NCBI GenBank assembly: GCA_017161705.1
Contig: JADFCW010000002.1
Location: 4,528 to 68,527 of the forward strand
Reading direction: 5' to 3'
DNA length: 64,000 nt
Source of the DNA: Candidatus Sumerlaeota bacterium
Lineage (GTDB): Bacteria; Sumerlaeota; Sumerlaeia; JADFCW01
The notes under the pieces were generated by a model. It was not told where the DNA came from and did no database searches. It worked only from the letters and a program-made list of their open reading frames with translations. Both the position numbers and the translations under genes were made by a program. Position 1 is the first letter of the stretch; each line of letters starts with the position of its first letter. Of this stretch, positions 13,189-41,610 are shown piece by piece.

Positions 13189-14407
<1,219 letters not shown>

Positions 14408-27553: not shown

Positions 27554-28834
27554 TTATGCAGTGAGTGGCGTTTTGATCTTGCAGACAACGGAGTGGCGGC
27601 GCGGGCTGCGGACAATCGGGAGCTCATCCACGACTTTGACCTCCACGCCGATTTGCTGGTTGAATAACTCCACGCACTTGCTGCGCATCATCGCCGACGT
27701 CCGCTCGTTGAATAGCGTAGTCGGCACCACCAGAATCTCGACTTTGCGCGGCTCGATCTGGACTAGCCGATAGGCCAGAACGTTGGTGAACTGATCGAGA
27801 ATATGTTCGATTTGCCGGGTGCCGACATACCCTCCGCCCGGCAGATGAACCGAGTGCTCAAACCGCCCGTGCACGCCCTCGAGCACCGGCCCCTGCCAGC
27901 CGCATTTGCACGGCCCTTTTTTCCAGCTGGCCACATCGCCCGTCCGATAGCGGATCAACGGCATGGTGTCATTGGCCAGACTGGTTAGGACCACCTCGCC
28001 CGGTTCGCCCGGATTGACCGGGTGGTCGTTGTGCAGAATCTCGACGTGAACCAGATCGAAATTCACGTGGAGTCCGTCGCGCGCCGGGCACTCGGCGGCG
28101 ACCGGCCCCAATTCCCACATCGTGTAAACATCCGTCGGCGGAATCCCAAACGTCTCGCGCAGCGTGTCGCGGTCGCTGGCCCGCATCACTTCTCCCCAGC
28201 TCAGGAGTAGCCGCGGCTGGAATCCCAGCGTCTTACCTTTGCGGATTTCCTGGCCGATGCGGCTGAGCGCCCACAGCGGCGCCGCCACGCAATCCGGCTT
28301 TACGCGGCTGATCACATGCAAATGCTCGAGGGTAGTCTCGGATGTGGGTACATAGTATCGCCGCCCGCGCAACATGCTGTCGAGCCATGTCGGCGGCGGC
28401 GGGGTCAGGCCTTCCGGCAGAATAGCCACGCGGTCGTGGCGGCCGGTCAGACCGTGGCCCTCGACGATGCGCCGCTCGATCAGGCGAATCGTTTCGTATT
28501 CGTCGGGGGAAAGAAAAACGCACGGCGCGGCAACTCCCGGCTCGGCCGCGGCAGCCCGCCGCCGGCACGACTCGCGCACTGTGCCGCGCGCCAGAAACGC
28601 ATCGGCTTCGCTTTGCAGATCGGCTCTCGTCGTGAACGGCAGGATGGATATATCGCGCAGTTGCCGGATATCGCGAAGTTTGATCCCATGCGAATGAAAG
28701 CGCTTTTCATAGAAAGGAACGTGCTGGGCCGCGCGCTCGATGACCTGGTGCAGACGCGACTCCGCAAATTTGGCAATCTGGCGCGCCGACCAATGCGCTC
28801 GATCGAGAATGTCTTTGGGATGGATTTTGGCCAT
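27554..28834 (-). CDS. PaaK/CapK/F390-synthetase-like adenylate-forming enzyme
   Basis: Start trimmed to MAKIHPKDI. Carries the ANL-superfamily core of PaaK-family ligases (YRTGDVASW) but is divergent from canonical PaaK. Confidence 0.6.
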   Translation of the reverse strand: MAKIHPKDILDRAHWSARQIAKFAESRLHQVIERAAQHVPFYEKRFHSHGIKLRDIRQLRDISILPFTTRADLQSEADAFLARGTVRESCRRRAAAAEPGVAAPCVFLSPDEYETIRLIERRIVEGHGLTGRHDRVAILPEGLTPPPPTWLDSMLRGRRYYVPTSETTLEHLHVISRVKPDCVAAPLWALSRIGQEIRKGKTLGFQPRLLLSWGEVMRASDRDTLRETFGIPPTDVYTMWELGPVAAECPARDGLHVNFDLVHVEILHNDHPVNPGEPGEVVLTSLANDTMPLIRYRTGDVASWKKGPCKCGWQGPVLEGVHGRFEHSVHLPGGGYVGTRQIEHILDQFTNVLAYRLVQIEPRKVEILVVPTTLFNERTSAMMRSKCVELFNQQIGVEVKVVDELPIVRSPRRHSVVCKIKTPLTA

Positions 28835-29211
28835 CGGGCTCGCTCGCCGTCGAAAATTACACCCCCTACTGCACTTCCTGCTTATGCTGTGTTTATGCCC
28901 CATCCTCCGCCGCGCCGCAAGCCTTTTCTTGCATAAAACGTTGCGTGGCGTAGGTTCGAAATGCCGGCGCTGCGATGCCGCGCCCTCTGCCACGTCGCCG
29001 CCCGGCCTATCGGTTCCAATCCCAGCGTTACCCTCTCCGCCCTCCTGAACGTTTGCAGCTTGTGTCAGTAGCCCTTGGCTATGCCAACCAGGAAGAGCGT
29101 CTCTTCGGCGACATCGGTTGGCCTTGACCCGCTCACTTGCATGGACGAACTATATGAAGGTTGATGCGGATATGCGGCAAATTTGACTCAAACGGCCGAT
29201 AGTAATCGCTC

Positions 29212-32200
29212 ATGGGAAAAGAGCCCATGTCCTGGACCGCCGCACAGCGGCGTGCAATTGAAACGCGCGGGGCCGACCTGCTCGTGGCCGCCTCGGCCGG
29301 CACGGGCAAGACCGCGGTCCTCGTCGAGCGCTGCATCCGCCTGGTAACGGATCCGATCGCCCCGATAGACCTCGATCGCCTGCTTGTGGTGACCTTCACG
29401 GAGGCGGCAGCCGCGGAAATGCGCAACCGGATCGGCGAGGCGCTGCATCGCCAGATCGCGCAGCACCCGGCGGATGCCCGGTTGCGGCGGCAGTTGATGT
29501 TGCTCGACCGCGCAATGATCTCAACGCTGCATTCCTTCGCGTTCCGCATAATTCAGGAACATTTCTTCCGCCTCGGCCTCGATCCGAATCTGGCAGTGCT
29601 GGATCCAGACGAAGCACTTCTGCTGCGCCATGAAACGCTCGACGATGTGTTCGAGGCCCTTTACACAAGCGAGAGCGAAACAGGGCAGCGGTTTGTGCGC
29701 CTGATCGAGCGCTATGGAAAGGACGGCGACGACGCGCCGGTGCGCAGCGCCGTTCTAAACCTGTGGGAGTTTCTGCGAAGTCTGCCGCGTCCGGAGCAGT
29801 GGAAGCGGCAGGTGTTGGACTCCTATCCGAAACCCGATGAAGCCCCCCCGCCTTTCGAGCGCCTTCGCCGCTGGTATGAGCCCTTTGTAGCCGCGCTGCG
29901 CGAGAACATGTTGCAGATCGAATCGGACCTCAGGGCCGCAGCGCAATGGGTCTATGATGCCGATCCCTCAACACGGGGATATACGCAATTCTTTCGAGAC
30001 GTTGCGGACGAGATGGCGAAATTGCGCGCGACGCTCCAGACCAACGGATACGACGCGTTCCACGAGGCCATCGGAAAGTGGGAATATCCGAAGTTGCGCA
30101 CAAATCCCGCCGTCGCCGACGATTTCATGCAGCAGGTGCGCGCACGGAACGACAAAATTCGCGAGGCCAAAAAGACACTTTTCAAGAACTGGTGCGTACT
30201 GTCCGGCGCGCAATGGGCAGAGACGCTGCGGGCCACACGCGCGGACGTAGAGATGATGTTCGAACTGGTCGAGCGGTTCGACGCCGCGTTTGCACGCGTC
30301 AAGCGCGAGCGCGGCGAAGTGGACTTCGGCGACCTCGAGCGGTTCTGTTTCGATTTACTGTGCGACAAGGCAGCCTCGGAAGGCGACCGCTATGCGCCGT
30401 CGGAAGTGGCGCGCAAAGAACTGCGCGATCGCTTCGAGGCGGTCCTGGTGGACGAATATCAGGATATCAATCCGCTGCAGGATGCGATCATCCGGCTGTG
30501 TGCGCGGGAAAACGATCCGCAACGGCCGCCGAACCTGTTCATGGTTGGCGATGTCAAACAGTCCATCTATCGGTTCCGGCTGGCCGAGCCGAAGTTGTTC
30601 CTGCAACGCCTGGCGGCGTTTCGCTCGGAAGGGGGCGCGGGGATCGGGCAACGCATTGACCTGTCGGAAAACCACCGAAGCCGGCCGGGGCTGCTTGCGG
30701 CGATCAATGCACTGTGCAGCCGGATCATGTCGCCCGAGGTGGGGGGAATTGTCTATGATTCGGCAGCAGAGTTACGGGGAGGATTCGATTTTCCAAAGGA
30801 AAGCAGCGGCGACATTCCGCCGCCGGTCACAGGACTGCCCGTCGAAGTTCACTTCTTCGACCGCGCGCGAGAGGAAACTATATCAGAAAGCGAGACCACT
30901 GCAGAATCGACGGAAGTTGACGAAGAAGAACCCAGGGACGGATCTGAGGCAGGGGCTTTGGCTGGTGCGGCGGTCCCGCCTGACGAACTCGAGGAAATCG
31001 AAATCGAGGCGCACTGGGTGGCCCGGCGAATCCGTGCCATGCTCAGCGGCGAGTTTTCCGTATGGGACCGCGGTGAAGGCCGTTACCGACCGGTCGCGCG
31101 CCGGGACATCGCGGTGTTGTTGCAGACGGCGGCGTATAAGGCAGCTCTATTTGTGCGGATTCTGCAGGCACACGGCATCCCTGCTTATACCGACATTCCG
31201 CCCGGGAAATTGCAGCCGGCTGAAATTCGCGACCTGTTCGCATTGCTGGAGCTGCTCGACAATCCCTGCCAGGATATTCCCCTGGCGGCAGTGCTGCGGT
31301 CGCCTCTGGTGCGCCTGAGCGAGGATGATCTGGCGCGCATCCGAATTCATCGCCGCGAGAGCAGCTTCTTTTCCGCCGCGCGCGCCTATTGTGAAAGCGG
31401 ACCGGAGGAACCTCTGCGCCGCCGGCTGGGGGAGTTTTTCGACCGCCTCGATCGCTGGCGGACTCTAGCCCGGCGCGGGCCCCTTGCACGCGCGCTCTGG
31501 GCCATCTACGACGAGACCGGTTATCTGGACTATGTCACGGCGATGGACGGCGGGGCCCAACGACGGGCCAACTTGATTGGGCTGTATGACCGGGCGCGCC
31601 AGTTCGACGAGTTCCGGCGGCGGGGCCTCGCGCGGTTCATTCAGTTTGTCCGCCAGCTGCAGGAAACCGAGAACCAGCTGGCAACACCGCCGGCTGTGTC
31701 GGAAGCCGACGACGTCGTGCGCGTGATGAGCATTCACAAGAGCAAGGGGTTGGAGTTTCCCGTGGTATTCCTGCCGGACATTGGCAAGAATTTCAATTTT
31801 CAAAATACGCGGGAGGACGTGGTTACCGATCGCGACCTTGGCGTGGCGCTGCGGGCCGTGGTGCCCCGGCGGAAAATCAAGTATCCAACGGTCGCGCACG
31901 CGGTGGCCTCGCGGCAGGTCAAGCGCGAGATTCTGGCCGAGAATATCCGCCTGCTGTACGTGGCGTTGACGCGCGCACGAGAAAAACTGGTTCTGTGCGG
32001 CTCGGTAAAGTTGGACAAAGCTTTGCAGGCATGGCGCCAATGCGCGGTTGCCGGGAACGACGGCCGGATTGCGCTGAGCCCCGGCGTTCTGGCATCCGCC
32101 CGCAGTTTTAGCGACTGGATCGGGCCGGCGCTGGCGCGTCTGGGCTGTTTGGGCGATCCAGCCCACCAGCCGCCGCCATCGGATACGTTATTCGCCGTCC

Positions 32201-33177
32201 ATTTTCATTGCGCCGAAGAGATTCAACGCTTGCAGACCAAAAACCTGGAGCGCGCGCGCGACGAGGAGACGTTGCGCAAGATTGCCGCGCTACAGCCGGT
32301 CGCTCCGCCCCCGCATGACCGCCAAGCGGTCGCGCGGATTTTCGAGCGCCTGACCTGGCAGTATGCCGCACGGCCGCTGACGCGCATTCGCGGAAAAATG
32401 TCGGTGTCCGAAATCAAACGGCGGTTCGAGACCGGGCGCGAAAGCGACGAGGCATTGAACGGGTGGGGCAGACAGGCAATAGCCCGCCGACCGGCGTTCA
32501 TGGCTGCGGGAACCGGCACGGCGCCCGTACTAACGGCCTCCGAGATTGGCACGGCCACACATACAGTGTTGCGCCATTTGGACCTATCGCAGCCGCCCGA
32601 CGAGGCAACGGTGCGCAGCCAGATAGCGCAGATTGCGGCGGAGGGAAAGCTCGCTGCCGCCGAGGCGGCGTGCGTGGATGCAGCAGCCATCGCCCGGTTT
32701 CTCCAGTCGCCGATAGGAACAGAAATTCGCGGAGCGCCCCATCGCGTGCAGCGCGAGATGCCGTTCAGCCTGGCGGTGCCGGCGGCCGAGATTGCGCGGC
32801 TGGAGAGGAGGCTGTCCAGCGAAATCAAGTCTAACGGGTCGGACGGGTCAGATGAGTCGGACAGGTCAGACAGCTCGGACCCCTCAGACAAATCCGATAG
32901 GATTTTTTGCAACGAGTGGGTCCACGTCCAGGGGATCGTGGACTGCTTGTTCGAGCGGCCGGAGGGGTTTGTGCTGTTGGACTTCAAGACCGACCGCGTC
33001 GAACGAGACACGGCCGAAACACGCGCCGCATTTTACCGTCCACAAATGGAGTTTTATGCCCGCGCGGTGGAAACGATTTTCCGCCGGCCTGTGGTCGAGC
33101 AAGTGCTTTACTTTCTTTCCTGCGGTGTGGCAGTGTCCATGCCTCCGAGGGACGGAGAGCGGTTTGGGAGATTTTAG
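29212..33177 (+). CDS. AddA-like UvrD-family helicase fused to a C-terminal PD-(D/E)xK nuclease
   Basis: Walker A AASAGTGKTAVL, UvrD helicase motifs, C-terminal nuclease motif GIVDCLFE...LLDFKTD. Acidic inserts and a DGSDESDRSDSSDPSDKSD low-complexity repeat. No addB-like gene is adjacent. Confidence 0.8.
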   Translation: MGKEPMSWTAAQRRAIETRGADLLVAASAGTGKTAVLVERCIRLVTDPIAPIDLDRLLVVTFTEAAAAEMRNRIGEALHRQIAQHPADARLRRQLMLLDRAMISTLHSFAFRIIQEHFFRLGLDPNLAVLDPDEALLLRHETLDDVFEALYTSESETGQRFVRLIERYGKDGDDAPVRSAVLNLWEFLRSLPRPEQWKRQVLDSYPKPDEAPPPFERLRRWYEPFVAALRENMLQIESDLRAAAQWVYDADPSTRGYTQFFRDVADEMAKLRATLQTNGYDAFHEAIGKWEYPKLRTNPAVADDFMQQVRARNDKIREAKKTLFKNWCVLSGAQWAETLRATRADVEMMFELVERFDAAFARVKRERGEVDFGDLERFCFDLLCDKAASEGDRYAPSEVARKELRDRFEAVLVDEYQDINPLQDAIIRLCARENDPQRPPNLFMVGDVKQSIYRFRLAEPKLFLQRLAAFRSEGGAGIGQRIDLSENHRSRPGLLAAINALCSRIMSPEVGGIVYDSAAELRGGFDFPKESSGDIPPPVTGLPVEVHFFDRAREETISESETTAESTEVDEEEPRDGSEAGALAGAAVPPDELEEIEIEAHWVARRIRAMLSGEFSVWDRGEGRYRPVARRDIAVLLQTAAYKAALFVRILQAHGIPAYTDIPPGKLQPAEIRDLFALLELLDNPCQDIPLAAVLRSPLVRLSEDDLARIRIHRRESSFFSAARAYCESGPEEPLRRRLGEFFDRLDRWRTLARRGPLARALWAIYDETGYLDYVTAMDGGAQRRANLIGLYDRARQFDEFRRRGLARFIQFVRQLQETENQLATPPAVSEADDVVRVMSIHKSKGLEFPVVFLPDIGKNFNFQNTREDVVTDRDLGVALRAVVPRRKIKYPTVAHAVASRQVKREILAENIRLLYVALTRAREKLVLCGSVKLDKALQAWRQCAVAGNDGRIALSPGVLASARSFSDWIGPALARLGCLGDPAHQPPPSDTLFAVHFHCAEEIQRLQTKNLERARDEETLRKIAALQPVAPPPHDRQAVARIFERLTWQYAARPLTRIRGKMSVSEIKRRFETGRESDEALNGWGRQAIARRPAFMAAGTGTAPVLTASEIGTATHTVLRHLDLSQPPDEATVRSQIAQIAAEGKLAAAEAACVDAAAIARFLQSPIGTEIRGAPHRVQREMPFSLAVPAAEIARLERRLSSEIKSNGSDGSDESDRSDSSDPSDKSDRIFCNEWVHVQGIVDCLFERPEGFVLLDFKTDRVERDTAETRAAFYRPQMEFYARAVETIFRRPVVEQVLYFLSCGVAVSMPPRDGERFGRF
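32848..32885 (+). repeat. Hexamer (TCGGAC/TCAGAC) tandem array inside the addA-like coding sequence, left arm of an inverted pair
   Basis: GTCAGATGAGTCGGACAGGTCAGACAGCTCGGAC encodes the Ser-Asp repeat. Confidence 0.6.
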
Positions 33178-33202
33178 GCTTTAGCCCTTGGATTCAAGTG
33201 AA

Positions 33203-33240
33203 CAAAGTCCGACCTGTCCGACTTGTCCGACTCGTCTGAC
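33203..33240 (-). repeat. Right arm of the inverted hexamer-array pair (GTCCGAC x3 to x4) in the addA-larA-like spacer
   Basis: The reverse complement GTCAGACGAGTCGGACAAGTCGGACAGGTCGGAC is about 85% identical to 32848-32885. Confidence 0.6.
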
Positions 33241-33292
33241 GCGCGTCCTTTCCCCAGAAATCCGCGCCCCAAAACCGCCGGAGGAACGATTG

Positions 33293-34600
33293 ATGAAATA
33301 CACGCTATGTTATGGCCGCGAAACCCTGACGTTGGATCTTCCCGATGATCTTTGCCGTCGGGTAATCCAGCCCAGTTTTCCGCCGGCCATTCCCGACCCG
33401 GATGCGGCCATAACGCGCTGCCTCGATGATCCGGTCGGCACACCGCCGTTGTCGAAGATTCTCGAAGGCCGACGCCGGATTGTCGTGGTCATCCCCGATG
33501 CAACCCGCGCCGGAGCCATACCTCTTTATGTCGGTCCGCTGCTTCGCTATTTACGCGCCCACGGGGTATCGCGCGAGCGCGCAACCCTGCTCTCGGCCAC
33601 AGGCGCCCACGGCCTGCACAGCGAGGCCCAGCGCGCCGCGCTGGTCGGCCCGGAAATTGCCGCCCAGTGGACCGTCGAAGACCACGACTGCGATCGGGGG
33701 AACGTCGAGATCGAGCCGCTCGACGCGGAAACACCCGTGGCCGTGGACCGCCATGCGCTGGAGGCCGACTGTCTGATTCTGGCCGGACAAATCAGTTTTC
33801 ATTACTGTGCAGGATTCGGCGGCGGGCGCAAGCTGATTGCCCCCGGGTTGTGCGGGCGCGCAACGGTTCACGCTCTCCATCGCCGGACGCTTGCCAACAT
33901 TGACGCTGACGGCAACTGGCACAGCCGCACGGGCGTCCTCCACCACAATCCGTTTCACGAGGCAATGCTGGCCGTTGCGCGGCGCGTCGGGCCGCGTTTC
34001 ACGCTCCATGCAACATTCGGTTTGGGCAACCAGCTGCTAGGGGTCGCGGCGGGCGATCTGGTCAAGGCACATGTAGCCGCCTGCCTGCAATATGCGCAGA
34101 TTTTCACCTGTCCTGTTCCCGAACGCCTGCCGTTGGTGGTGGCCTCGTGCGGCGGATGGCCGCTGGACGGCAATCTGTATCAGGCGCACAAGGCATTCGA
34201 CAACGCCTTTCGCGCCGTGCAGCGCGGGGGAACGATTCTCCTGCTGGCCGAATGCAGCGGCGGCTGGGGGCCCGAGGCGTTTGTCCGCTGGCTGGCCATT
34301 CCCACCCTGGCCGAGCATCGCCAGCGCCTGCGCGCGGAATTCCAAGTCGAAGGCCACACCACGTATGCGTTCAAATGGAAAGCCACGCAATGCCGCGTGA
34401 TTATCGTGAGCCACGTGCTGGACGAACGCATAACCGCAGGCGATGCACCCGCGTGGCTTCGCGGCGGCCCCTCGCCATTTCAGATCGAAATCGTCGGCAC
34501 AATCGGCGAAGCGCTGGAGCGGCTGGGCGCCGGCGGCCGCCGCCTGCCGTATTATCTGATGCCCAACGGCGCGGCCTGCCTGCCCGAAGTTACCGGATAG
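33293..34600 (+). CDS. LarA-like (DUF2088 / lactate racemase family) protein
   Basis: GGAGG RBS. Start trimmed to MKYTLCYGRETLTL. The N-terminal domain has a Rossmann-like IVVVIPD motif and conserved His residues typical of LarA-family 2-hydroxyacid racemases. Confidence 0.65.
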   Translation: MKYTLCYGRETLTLDLPDDLCRRVIQPSFPPAIPDPDAAITRCLDDPVGTPPLSKILEGRRRIVVVIPDATRAGAIPLYVGPLLRYLRAHGVSRERATLLSATGAHGLHSEAQRAALVGPEIAAQWTVEDHDCDRGNVEIEPLDAETPVAVDRHALEADCLILAGQISFHYCAGFGGGRKLIAPGLCGRATVHALHRRTLANIDADGNWHSRTGVLHHNPFHEAMLAVARRVGPRFTLHATFGLGNQLLGVAAGDLVKAHVAACLQYAQIFTCPVPERLPLVVASCGGWPLDGNLYQAHKAFDNAFRAVQRGGTILLLAECSGGWGPEAFVRWLAIPTLAEHRQRLRAEFQVEGHTTYAFKWKATQCRVIIVSHVLDERITAGDAPAWLRGGPSPFQIEIVGTIGEALERLGAGGRRLPYYLMPNGAACLPEVTG

Positions 34601-35906
34601 TTTCTCCTGGACGCTCATCCACGACACGTCGGGCCTTGCCCGTGAACCGCTCGAGCGATTTGGGTTCGACCAGCCGCACGTCCACATCCACGCCGAGGCC
34701 CGAACGAAGCGCTTCGCGGATTTCTTCCTCCACCGCCCGCATGTGCCCTATCTTGTCGTTGAACAGCGCTTCGGTGACCTCCACGCGCACTTCGAGGTGT
34801 TCCAGCGCTCCCCTGCGGGTGCGGACAATCTGATAGTGCGGCTGCGCATGCTCGATGTCGAGAAGGATACTTTCGATCTGCGAAGGGAAAACGTTCACTC
34901 CGCGGATGACCATCATGTCGTCGGTGCGCCCGACGACTTTGGACATCCGCGCCAGCGTTCGCCCGCAGGCGCAGGGCTCGCGCGTCACCGACGCCAGATC
35001 GCCTGTGCGGTAGCGGATCAGGGGAACCGCCTCGCGTGTCAAGGTTGTGAAAACCAGTTCGCCGACCTCGCCGTCGGCGACCGGTTCGAGCGTCTTTGGG
35101 TCGAGCACTTCCACGATATAGTGGTCTTCGGCAATGTGCATGCCGTTCTTGTACAAGCACTCATAGGAGACGCCCGGCCCGCACAGTTCGCTCAGACCGT
35201 AGTTGTCGGTGGCCACGATGCCCAGGAGCGACTCGATCTGGCGGCGGATACCTTCGCTCCAGGGCTCGCCGCCGAAAAGCCCCCATTTGAGGGCGAGCTG
35301 CCCGCGCCCGACGCCCATCTCCTGGGCCGTTTCGGCAATGTGCAGCGCGTAGGTCGGCGTGCCAATCAGAGCGGTAGTGCCGAAGTCGCGCAGGAACTGA
35401 ACCTGTCGCGGCGTATTGCCGCTGGAAATCGGCAGGACGAGGGCGCCGACCCGCTCCAGTCCGGCGTGCAGACCGAACCCGCCGGTGAACAAACCGTAGC
35501 CAAAAGAAATCTGCGCAATATCCGAGGCCGTGACTCCCGCCGCCGTAGCCAGGCGAGCGCACAGTTCCGCCCACGTGTCGAGATCGCGCCGCGTGTAGCC
35601 GACGATGGTGGACTTGCCGCGCGAGGTGCCCGACGAGCCGTGCACGCGCACCACTTCGCGCAACGGCACGGCAAACATCCCGAAGGGATAGTTGTCCATG
35701 AAATCCTGTTTGACGGTGAACGGAAGCCGGCGCAGGTCGTCCAGACCGCGAATGTCCGCGGGCCGGAGACCGGCGGCGTTCAGTCTGGCCTGGACGTAGG
35801 GCAGGTGTTCGGCCGCGCGCCGGACTTGCTCGCGGAGCAATTCGCCCTGGCGACACTCAAGCGTCGGCCGATCCACTTGTTCCCATGCAGGGTCCCAGAT
35901 AGTCAA
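34590..35906 (-). CDS. paaK: Phenylacetate-CoA ligase
   Basis: Collinear with E. coli PaaK across its full length (DNYPFGMFAVP, GSSGTSGKSTIVGYT, YGLFTGGFG). TTG start with a GGGAGAG RBS. Confidence 0.8.
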   Translation of the reverse strand: MTIWDPAWEQVDRPTLECRQGELLREQVRRAAEHLPYVQARLNAAGLRPADIRGLDDLRRLPFTVKQDFMDNYPFGMFAVPLREVVRVHGSSGTSRGKSTIVGYTRRDLDTWAELCARLATAAGVTASDIAQISFGYGLFTGGFGLHAGLERVGALVLPISSGNTPRQVQFLRDFGTTALIGTPTYALHIAETAQEMGVGRGQLALKWGLFGGEPWSEGIRRQIESLLGIVATDNYGLSELCGPGVSYECLYKNGMHIAEDHYIVEVLDPKTLEPVADGEVGELVFTTLTREAVPLIRYRTGDLASVTREPCACGRTLARMSKVVGRTDDMMVIRGVNVFPSQIESILLDIEHAQPHYQIVRTRRGALEHLEVRVEVTEALFNDKIGHMRAVEEEIREALRSGLGVDVDVRLVEPKSLERFTGKARRVVDERPGETIR

Positions 35907-39744: not shown

Positions 39745-41610
39745 TTACCGCACCCCATGAAAGCATTTGTGCAGATGATCCTCGGGCATTTTCCGCGTGA
39801 TCAGCGACACCACAACGGTCGCGACCACGGCCAGAGGAAAGGCAATGACCAGCGCGTCGAGAAACCGCCAGGTTCCCTGCAGAATGAGCGAGGGATTGGG
39901 ATGGTTGAGAAAGGGGAGGAGGAGCGCGGCGAACCGGGCGTTGACCATCTGCACGCAAAACAGCCAGAACATGCTGACAAAGAATCCCACGCACATGCCG
40001 GCAATGGCGCCGGCTTTGGTGATCCAGCGAAAATACAGCCCGCCGAAATACATCGGCAGAAAAGAAGATGCACACAAACCAAAAAACAGCGCCGTCGCCG
40101 CCGGGATAATGCTGCCCGGCAATTTCACGGCCAGACCCAACGTCACCGCAATGCCCAGCACAATCCCGAATCGCGTGATCAGCACAGTGGTGCCGCGGCG
40201 CTCGCCGCCGAGAATGGTTTGCTCGTAAATATCGCGGCCCAGAGCGGTTCCAATCGTATGGAACTGCGAGCTTTGCGTAGACATGGCCGCCGACAGGAGG
40301 GTCAGAGCAAACAGCGCCACGAACCACGAGGGCAGCGCGGACGTAATGAAGGTCGGAATGACAAGGTCCGAATCGCCGCCGGCGCGCACCATGGCAATCT
40401 CGCCGCCGTGCTGGAAAAAATACACATTGGACAGCGCGCCCACGACAAACGCCACGCCGGTCATCATCAGAATGAAAATCCCCCCGGTCGGCACCGCGCG
40501 GTTCAACTCGCGGTTGCTTTTTACAGTCATGAAACGCACCACCAGCTGCGGCTGGGCCAGAACGCCGATCCCGACGCCGAGAATCACTGTCGTGACCATG
40601 AAGCACCAAAACGGCGTGTTGAACGCGGGCATATCCGTCCAGCCGCGCCAGCCCCCGCGTTGCAGCCGAGCCACGACGGCCATACTGGCCACGCCCTTGG
40701 GGTCGGTGGCGGCAATGGCGCCGAATTTCTGGAGCAACTGGTCCTCCTTTGGATTTTCCGCCAAATACTTTTTCCTGGCTTCTTCGCTCATCGGTTTGAG
40801 TTTGTCCCTGAGCGCGGCGGCGGCCAGGCCCATATCCGTCACTGACGCCAGGGTCAGCTGCTCGCCGGTCTTCTGGTTGTAGTTTTCGACAGCTTGTGCC
40901 GCGTTTGCCTCCAAGTCCGCCGGCAGCCGGGACAACGCTTCGTGGCCGGCCACAACTCCACCCAGTCTCCCATAGGAATAGAGAATCAGAATCACCATTC
41001 CGGCGAGCATGATTCCGCCCTGCAAGGCATCGGTCCACATAACCCCCTTGAGCCCGCCGGCGATCACATAGAGGGCCACAAGCACCGTGTAAATGAGCAT
41101 GGCCATTTGCAAAGCTGTGGCCAGAGTCATGGCCTGATCCATGTGAAAGGTCTTGACGATAAACGTTCCCGCGCCGCGCAGAACGGCCGAGGCATAGACA
41201 GGCATGAAGAGAAAAATAACGAGGGCGGAGAAGAACTGGATGAATTTGCTTTGATACCGCCGGCCCAGAAACTCGGGGAACGTGTGGGCGTCAAGGTTGT
41301 GGCCCATGCGCCGCGTGCGCTTGCCGAAAAACACAAAGGCCACGAAAATCCCAACGAAGATATTGAAGAATGTCAGCCACAGCAGACCCATCCCGAAGTT
41401 TGCCGCCGCCCCTCCGAAGCCTACAATGGCCGACGTGCTGATAAACGTCGCCCCATAGGACAACGCCATAACGACCGGATGAGCGCGGCGCCCCGCCACC
41501 AGATAATCCGCGGTTGTCTTAGTCTTCGTATAAGCATAAAATCCGATCCAAGCGCACGCCAGAAGATAAATCACCGTAATGATGATCAGGGTGGCGTCCT
41601 GCTCGCTCAT
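39745..41610 (-). CDS. Sodium:solute symporter family transporter (large subunit)
   Basis: 13 to 14 TM helices, SSS-family N-terminus, AGGGAGGG RBS. Confidence 0.8.
   Translation of the reverse strand: MSEQDATLIIITVIYLLACAWIGFYAYTKTKTTADYLVAGRRAHPVVMALSYGATFISTSAIVGFGGAAANFGMGLLWLTFFNIFVGIFVAFVFFGKRTRRMGHNLDAHTFPEFLGRRYQSKFIQFFSALVIFLFMPVYASAVLRGAGTFIVKTFHMDQAMTLATALQMAMLIYTVLVALYVIAGGLKGVMWTDALQGGIMLAGMVILILYSYGRLGGVVAGHEALSRLPADLEANAAQAVENYNQKTGEQLTLASVTDMGLAAAALRDKLKPMSEEARKKYLAENPKEDQLLQKFGAIAATDPKGVASMAVVARLQRGGWRGWTDMPAFNTPFWCFMVTTVILGVGIGVLAQPQLVVRFMTVKSNRELNRAVPTGGIFILMMTGVAFVVGALSNVYFFQHGGEIAMVRAGGDSDLVIPTFITSALPSWFVALFALTLLSAAMSTQSSQFHTIGTALGRDIYEQTILGGERRGTTVLITRFGIVLGIAVTLGLAVKLPGSIIPAATALFFGLCASSFLPMYFGGLYFRWITKAGAIAGMCVGFFVSMFWLFCVQMVNARFAALLLPFLNHPNPSLILQGTWRFLDALVIAFPLAVVATVVVSLITRKMPEDHLHKCFHGVR

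Follow-up and report, generated by a model that had tools for sequence, protein, structure and literature searches.

Probable separation of addA from a retained addB in a Candidatus Sumerlaeota bacterium

The DNA considered here, hereafter the window, is a stretch of 64,000 nucleotides (nt) from an uncultured Candidatus Sumerlaeota bacterium of the class Sumerlaeia (BRC1; GCA_017161705.1, contig JADFCW010000002.1, positions 4,528 to 68,527). Our subject is the gene at 29212-33177, which a sequence-only reading had described as coding for an AddA-like helicase-nuclease of 1321 amino acids (aa) with no addB beside it and with unrelated neighbours. That description holds: the frame of 1321 codons is uninterrupted, the motifs GTGKT, VDCLFE and LDFKTD are where they were said to be, and the curated cutoff of the AddA profile TIGR02785 is passed. 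The gene upstream is a divergent PaaK/DVU1553-like adenosine monophosphate (AMP)-dependent ligase (27554-28993, minus strand), which falls under all curated cutoffs, and the gene downstream is LarA-like (Lar_N and LarA_C; Pfam, NCBIfam). A tblastn search with Sumerlaeia AddB was negative across the 64-kb window, its best match (E 0.05) being a paralogous region of addA itself. The gene product is a predicted canonical full-length AddA of the AddAB double-strand-break resection enzyme. Taken as a whole, the locus very probably holds an ordinary AddA whose operon has been split, with addB relocated, not lost. The coding sequence and its domains and motifs are as follows.

29212..33177, + strand: addA coding sequence, 1321 aa plus stop, predicted AddA subunit of the AddAB helicase-nuclease (open reading frame list and translation)
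29233..31995, + strand: UvrD/PcrA-type superfamily 1A (SF1A) helicase motor, aa 8-928 (Pfam, motif positions, conservation across homologues)
29299-29313, + strand: Walker A GTGKT, aa 30-34
30451-30465, + strand: DEYQD helicase motif
30544-30579, + strand: helicase motif VGDVKQSIYRFR
30661-30684, + strand: helicase motif IV, LSENHRSR
31729-31770, + strand: helicase motif V
31951-31989, + strand: helicase motif VI
32530..33117, + strand: RecB-family PD-(D/E)XK nuclease domain, approximately aa 1107-1302 (Pfam PDDEXK_1, alignment, AlphaFold, Foldseek)

The assignment as AddA is carried principally by the NCBIfam equivalog TIGR02785 (addA_Gpos), which the protein (P0001) matches over its full length with 977.1 bits (E 1.4e-293), compared with a curated trusted cutoff of 707.65. 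P0001 itself is the identical database entry, on an NCBI contig of 71,419 nt that carries no annotation. Against the addA_alphas profile it scores 255 bits versus a cutoff of 861, and it lies far under each of the cutoffs for pcrA, uvrD and rep. The best match in the PDB is AddA of Bacillus subtilis (3U44_A, plus four further entries; E 4.5e-220), with the aligned parts covering aa 6-530, 586-1194 and 1234-1305; the B. subtilis structures (3U44, 3U4Q, 4CEH, 4CEI and 4CEJ) have the same domain order and all of the catalytic motifs. Identity to AddA homologues from Firmicutes is approximately 36-41%. Conservation supports 29212 as the start codon: it is shared with a relative whose AddA is 80% identical (SKW40, see below; MGKEPMSWT versus MAKESLKWT in the DNA alignment) and which does not share the second ATG, at 29227.

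Pfam finds UvrD-helicase (aa 8-466, E 2.4e-51), UvrD_C (3.9e-23), UvrD_C_2 and PDDEXK_1 (aa 1107-1302) in the protein. In an alignment of 37 sequences the helicase motifs, i.e. Walker A, DEYQD and III-VI, are all present and near-invariant among the homologues, and in the nuclease domain E1111, G1113, H1117, D1244, D1257, K1259, Y1275, Q1278 and Y1282 are invariant; the catalytic motifs there are QGIVDCLFE (aa 1240-1248) and LLDFKTD (aa 1255-1261). A structure prediction, as had been proposed, was made with AlphaFold and was restricted to aa 1001-1321; it gives an AddA-like nuclease fold with a mean predicted local distance difference test score (pLDDT) of 81, exceeding 90 in the nuclease core. 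The best Foldseek matches of this model are all AddA chains (4CEH_A, 4CEJ_A, 4CEI_A and 3U44_A), with a nuclease domain identity to B. subtilis AddA of approximately 30%.

Unlike in B. subtilis, addA in the window is not adjacent to addB, and the relatives of the window genome indicate how this arrangement probably arose. In L002 (JGI 3300035688, 59% AddA identity) and in L004-L006 (ENA and Logan, 61%) the gene order is addB-addA-larA, the end of addB overlapping or directly abutting the start of addA. For P0007/P0122, P0009/P0130 and P0010/P0132, contigs of equal length point to AddA/AddB pairs on shared contigs as well. The closest relative of the window AddA, with 80% identity, is P0002 (MCX8036549.1), named by NCBI 'helicase-exonuclease AddAB subunit AddA [Candidatus Sumerlaeia bacterium]', from the metagenome-assembled genome of Candidatus Sumerlaeia bacterium SKW40 (GCA_026415575.1). 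In SKW40, as in the window, addA and larA stand together without addB (contig JAOAGV010000023, locus L001), and no addB is present in the 21 kb around the gene (10-kb flanks on each side).

The window and SKW40 are collinear (tblastx synteny, DNA alignment) from approximately 30 nt upstream of the addA ATG to around window position 40453, i.e. for approximately 11 kb downstream, and are unrelated farther upstream, where SKW40 has a glycerate kinase gene and the window has that for the PaaK-like ligase. By contrast, L002 and L004-L006 have addB where the window and SKW40 carry unrelated DNA. Since collinearity begins approximately 30 nt before addA, at the place where the 3' end of addB lies in these more distant relatives, the breakpoint falls precisely at the former addB/addA junction:

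29183..29211, + strand: rearrangement breakpoint; collinearity with L001 starts here, and the addB 3' end occupies this place in more distant relatives

Searching with tblastn for remnants of addB upstream of addA, elsewhere in the window or in L001 revealed none. A search with the L002 AddB did, however, identify an addB in the SKW40 assembly: P0128 (MCX8037217.1) has 1235 aa, is intact and is encoded mid-contig on JAOAGV010000046, with ilvBNC plus a hypothetical gene on one side and other unrelated genes beyond. Thus, in the nearest relative of the window genome both AddAB subunits are present, intact and unlinked, in line with the suggestion in the sequence-only reading that the window AddA works with an unlinked partner.

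The same L002 search recovered a candidate for that partner in the window lineage. P0126, a protein of 1249 aa encoded on a 9,760-nt NCBI contig, shares 82% of its residues with the SKW40 AddB, much as the two AddA proteins share 80%; no AddB outside this pair exceeds 66% identity to either of its members. P0126 keeps the Walker A motif, the iron-sulfur (Fe-S) cysteines C880, C1204, C1207 and C1213, and the nuclease motif D1026...D1042-x-K1044, all of which are invariant in the Sumerlaeia AddB alignment. Both P0126 and the window AddA are present in NCBI only and are missing from the gene-position index used; the index does contain the two SKW40 proteins and, as a control, P0134, an unnamed protein likewise present in NCBI only. 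On the basis of identity, conserved residues and database status, P0126 is with high probability the window genome's own AddB.

The ancestral order in Sumerlaeia would thus be addB-addA-larA, and in the common ancestor of the window genome and SKW40 a rearrangement at the addB/addA junction would have parted the two genes, addA remaining beside larA and addB now being located elsewhere in the chromosome. Judged from the homologous AddAB of B. subtilis, AddA would supply the single active SF1A motor, moving 3' to 5', and would cut the 3' strand; AddB would contribute an inactive helicase-like domain that scans for Chi, an Fe-S cluster and the nuclease for the 5' strand. Together the subunits would yield a 3' tail for RecA. 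It can be inferred that AddA and AddB still assemble and that the mechanism would be as in B. subtilis AddAB.

Some observations weigh against this interpretation. P0126 is not physically tied to the window genome, which is absent from the contig collections searched, the GTDB representative genomes included, its assignment being by inference. In the TIGR02773 (addB_Gpos) profile it scores 818 bits (E 1e-245), compared with a cutoff of 903.7, and the Sumerlaeia AddB proteins in general (P0121, P0126 and P0128), linked ones included, score 804-862 bits and so also fall short; the operon-linked protein reaches 862 bits. Sumerlaeia AddAB is known from sequence alone. A simple sigma-70 scan found no promoter-like site upstream of addA, such a scan being uninformative for this phylum; likewise, the matches of a promoter and terminator scan around addA are at chance level and uninformative.

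The NCBI name of the SKW40 AddB is only 'PD-(D/E)XK nuclease family protein', a generic name that the sub-cutoff addB_Gpos scores would explain. Scores of this kind could make AddB seem absent from the phylum Sumerlaeota in automated annotation. The operon split calls for caution in context-based annotation, and with the generic naming and the sub-cutoff scores the caution extends to annotation pipelines generally.

The architecture of the window protein is common to RecB of RecBCD and to AdnA/AdnB of AdnAB, and it could in principle be one of these with its partners elsewhere; the recB profile TIGR00609 does match, at 1e-65. However, that match amounts to 222.5 bits versus a cutoff of 696.05, and NF008128 gives 110 bits versus 1697, whereas the addA_Gpos cutoff is passed. 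RecB chains in the PDB match at aa 358-504 only, with E of approximately 1e-24 compared with 1e-220 for AddA, and the fold resemblance to the AdnA and AdnB structures is only distant (Foldseek, E above 1e-3). The profile searches thus do not return a standard RecB, the outcome that the sequence-only reading had named as able to overturn it, and a RecB or Adn identity is exceedingly improbable. A role in defence, which that reading had also raised, e.g. as a Gabija GajB-like protein or other UvrD-nuclease immune effector, can draw on matches to the PADLOC GajB models of up to 1e-32. These matches are partial, covering generic UvrD motor segments (e.g. aa 8-133 and 351-498), and their E-values are poorer by some 260 orders of magnitude than that of the AddA model. 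There is no GajA, other defence partner or mobile-element gene nearby, neither neighbour matches PADLOC, the surroundings are ordinary chromosomal ones, and in relatives the orthologous gene belongs to an addB-addA operon. With the AddA equivalog cutoff passed, the defence proposal is effectively refuted and has next to no probability.

Two further explanations accept the protein as an AddA and differ on what followed the break-up of the operon. In one of these, AddA acts alone or with a partner other than AddB, having lost its operon partner, as in the single-chain end-resection enzyme put forward in the sequence-only reading. This would fit with there being no addB within 64 kb and with addA evidently having its own expression signals, as it adjoins a divergent gene. 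It does not sit well with SKW40, where the same unlinked addA is accompanied by an intact full-length addB elsewhere, or with the existence of P0126, a lineage-matched AddB with all catalytic and Fe-S residues; moreover, the window protein is in other respects collinear with its B. subtilis counterpart and has no extra domains. A stand-alone enzyme is therefore very unlikely. It might also be supposed that addA is a remnant decaying after disruption of its operon, given the break itself and the low-complexity repeat that has grown inside the nuclease domain. Yet the frame is unbroken over its 1321 codons, the motifs are intact and the loop that holds the repeat varies also in relatives with linked genes. 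The ratio of nonsynonymous to synonymous substitution between the window and SKW40 genes, two unlinked orthologues, is 0.18 (dN 0.119, dS 0.64). Purifying selection has therefore acted on addA ever since the two lineages parted, which they did after the split. Decay into a pseudogene thus has only a very slight chance of being correct. A false lead is thereby removed: that an AddA has no adjacent addB does not speak for a new single-chain resection enzyme or a defence system.

An unlinked arrangement of addA and addB is already known. Rocha et al. 2005 (PMC1193525) reported that addA and addB lie together in 20 of 21 Firmicutes (all but Clostridium tetani) and in 13 of 13 proteobacteria. To give a baseline for how often the genes are linked, GTDB representative genomes were scanned with the Sumerlaeia AddB alignment, which gave 80 AddB loci, 75 of them with enough downstream sequence; one locus is from Sumerlaeia (SKW40) and the rest are from Firmicutes and Planctomycetota. 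In 63 of the 75, addA is directly downstream of addB. The other 12, which have no addA within 10 kb, come from several Desulfosporosinus species, two Pirellulales and SKW40. The Desulfosporosinus loci concerned are L009, L014, L016-L018, L021, L023, L025 and L040, and the Pirellulales loci are L008 and L078; in other Desulfosporosinus (L010, L012, L015, L020, L022, L041, L042 and L055) addB and addA are adjacent. Either a solitary AddB paralogue or repeated splitting of the operon could account for the Desulfosporosinus pattern.

In Helicobacter pylori addA (HP1553) and addB (HP0275) are reportedly unlinked, and HP1553 is said to have been taken for a time as a lone RecB-like protein. C. tetani and H. 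pylori thus resemble SKW40 in having the subunits at separate loci, although they belong to different phyla and represent independent events, and the H. pylori proteins are of the shorter epsilonproteobacterial type. The split arrangement is uncommon but has precedent. A sub-clade of Sumerlaeia is one more lineage in which the normally tight addB-addA operon is split, an addition that matters little in itself.

The sequence-only reading drew attention to two low-complexity segments in the protein as possible special features, and neither is as it was described. The relevant features are as follows.

30802..30966, + strand: variable acidic linker, aa 531-585, with 15 D/E and 3 K/R in 55 residues, running on into the conserved DELEEIEIEA
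32830..32898, + strand: Ser-Asp low-complexity loop, aa 1207-1229, SNGSDGSDESDRSDSSDPSDKSD, a tandem repeat with a 9-nt period
33207..33243, + strand: reverse-complement copy of the Ser-Asp repeat, GTCCGACNN, approximately 4 units, in the addA-larA spacer; pairs with 32844-32880

The acidic segment, which overall spans approximately aa 531-599, had been taken for a special insert. Its variable part is what remains unaligned between residues 520 and 538 of B. subtilis AddA, and an acidic linker of variable length, ending in a conserved ELE.IE.EA, occupies this place in every aligned AddA homologue, those of Firmicutes too. Compared with approximately 18 residues in B. subtilis AddA, the window linker has 55, and it is only some 15-35 residues longer than in homologues.

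The Ser-Asp stretch, placed by the same reading immediately before the nuclease domain, is in fact inside it, between the invariant REMPF strand (REMPFSLAV; REMPF at aa 1181-1185) and catalytic motif II (D1244). The corresponding loop has approximately 8 residues in B. subtilis AddA and 39, rich in Ser and Asp, in the window protein. Other Sumerlaeia have unrelated insertions of varied size at this site or none (it is absent in P0003, P0008, P0009 and P0010); in SKW40 (P0002) the loop is 15 residues shorter than in the window. Within the AlphaFold model, which covers it, the loop has a pLDDT of 62-68. Tandem Repeats Finder reports a period of 9 with 5.2 copies at 32834-32880, and the stretch arose by expansion of this 9-nt repeat. 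Both segments are most readily understood as flexible surface parts of the protein, the acidic one a linker and the Ser-Asp one a loop, and not as functional additions.

The Ser-Asp repeat has an inverted counterpart in the spacer between addA and larA. The two form an inverted repeat (I1) with arms of 37 nt (32844-32880 and 33207-33243) that are 86% complementary and have 326 nt between them. With one mismatch allowed, the pattern TCGGACNNNTCGGAC has 6 matches in the window, all at these two places, compared with 0.46 expected; the minimum-free-energy RNA fold pairs both arms (z = -5.7). SKW40 carries shorter, weaker versions of both arms (L001, 13611-13640 and 13956-13985). The insert may have originated by template switching, of which the spacer copy would be a record. 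It is very unlikely that the repeat and its copy form a functional element, e.g. a long-range mRNA stem for stability of the addA 3' end or for larA expression, or a contingency locus prone to recombination or slippage that varies the nuclease surface loop; separately, the idea that uncoupling of addA from addB permits independent regulation of the subunits is just as doubtful. In the 59% relative L002 the addA-larA spacer (13885-13978) has a different short tandem repeat, with TGAAAC-type units, and this spacer therefore tends to gather short repeats in several lineages.

With regard to the neighbourhood, the LarA-like gene, of the nickel-pincer racemase family and under equivalog cutoffs, lies directly 3' of addA in all of the Sumerlaeia loci examined, those with and those without a linked addB (window 33188-34600; L001 14030-15340; L002 13978-15288; L004 9614-10921). 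The TTG at 33188, where the window open reading frame starts, probably lies upstream of the true start; homologues have 435-436 aa, and similarity begins at approximately 33290. The addA-larA pair is flanked by two paralogous PaaK/F390-synthetase-like AMP-dependent ligase genes, at 27554-28993 and 34590-35906, both on the minus strand. That at 34590-35906 is kept in SKW40, with approximately 92% translated identity, and that at 27554-28993 is confined to the window's side of the breakpoint. The other genes of the window are ordinary chromosomal ones, including tgt, queA, a beta-CASP RNase, sulfatases, secretins and a solute symporter.

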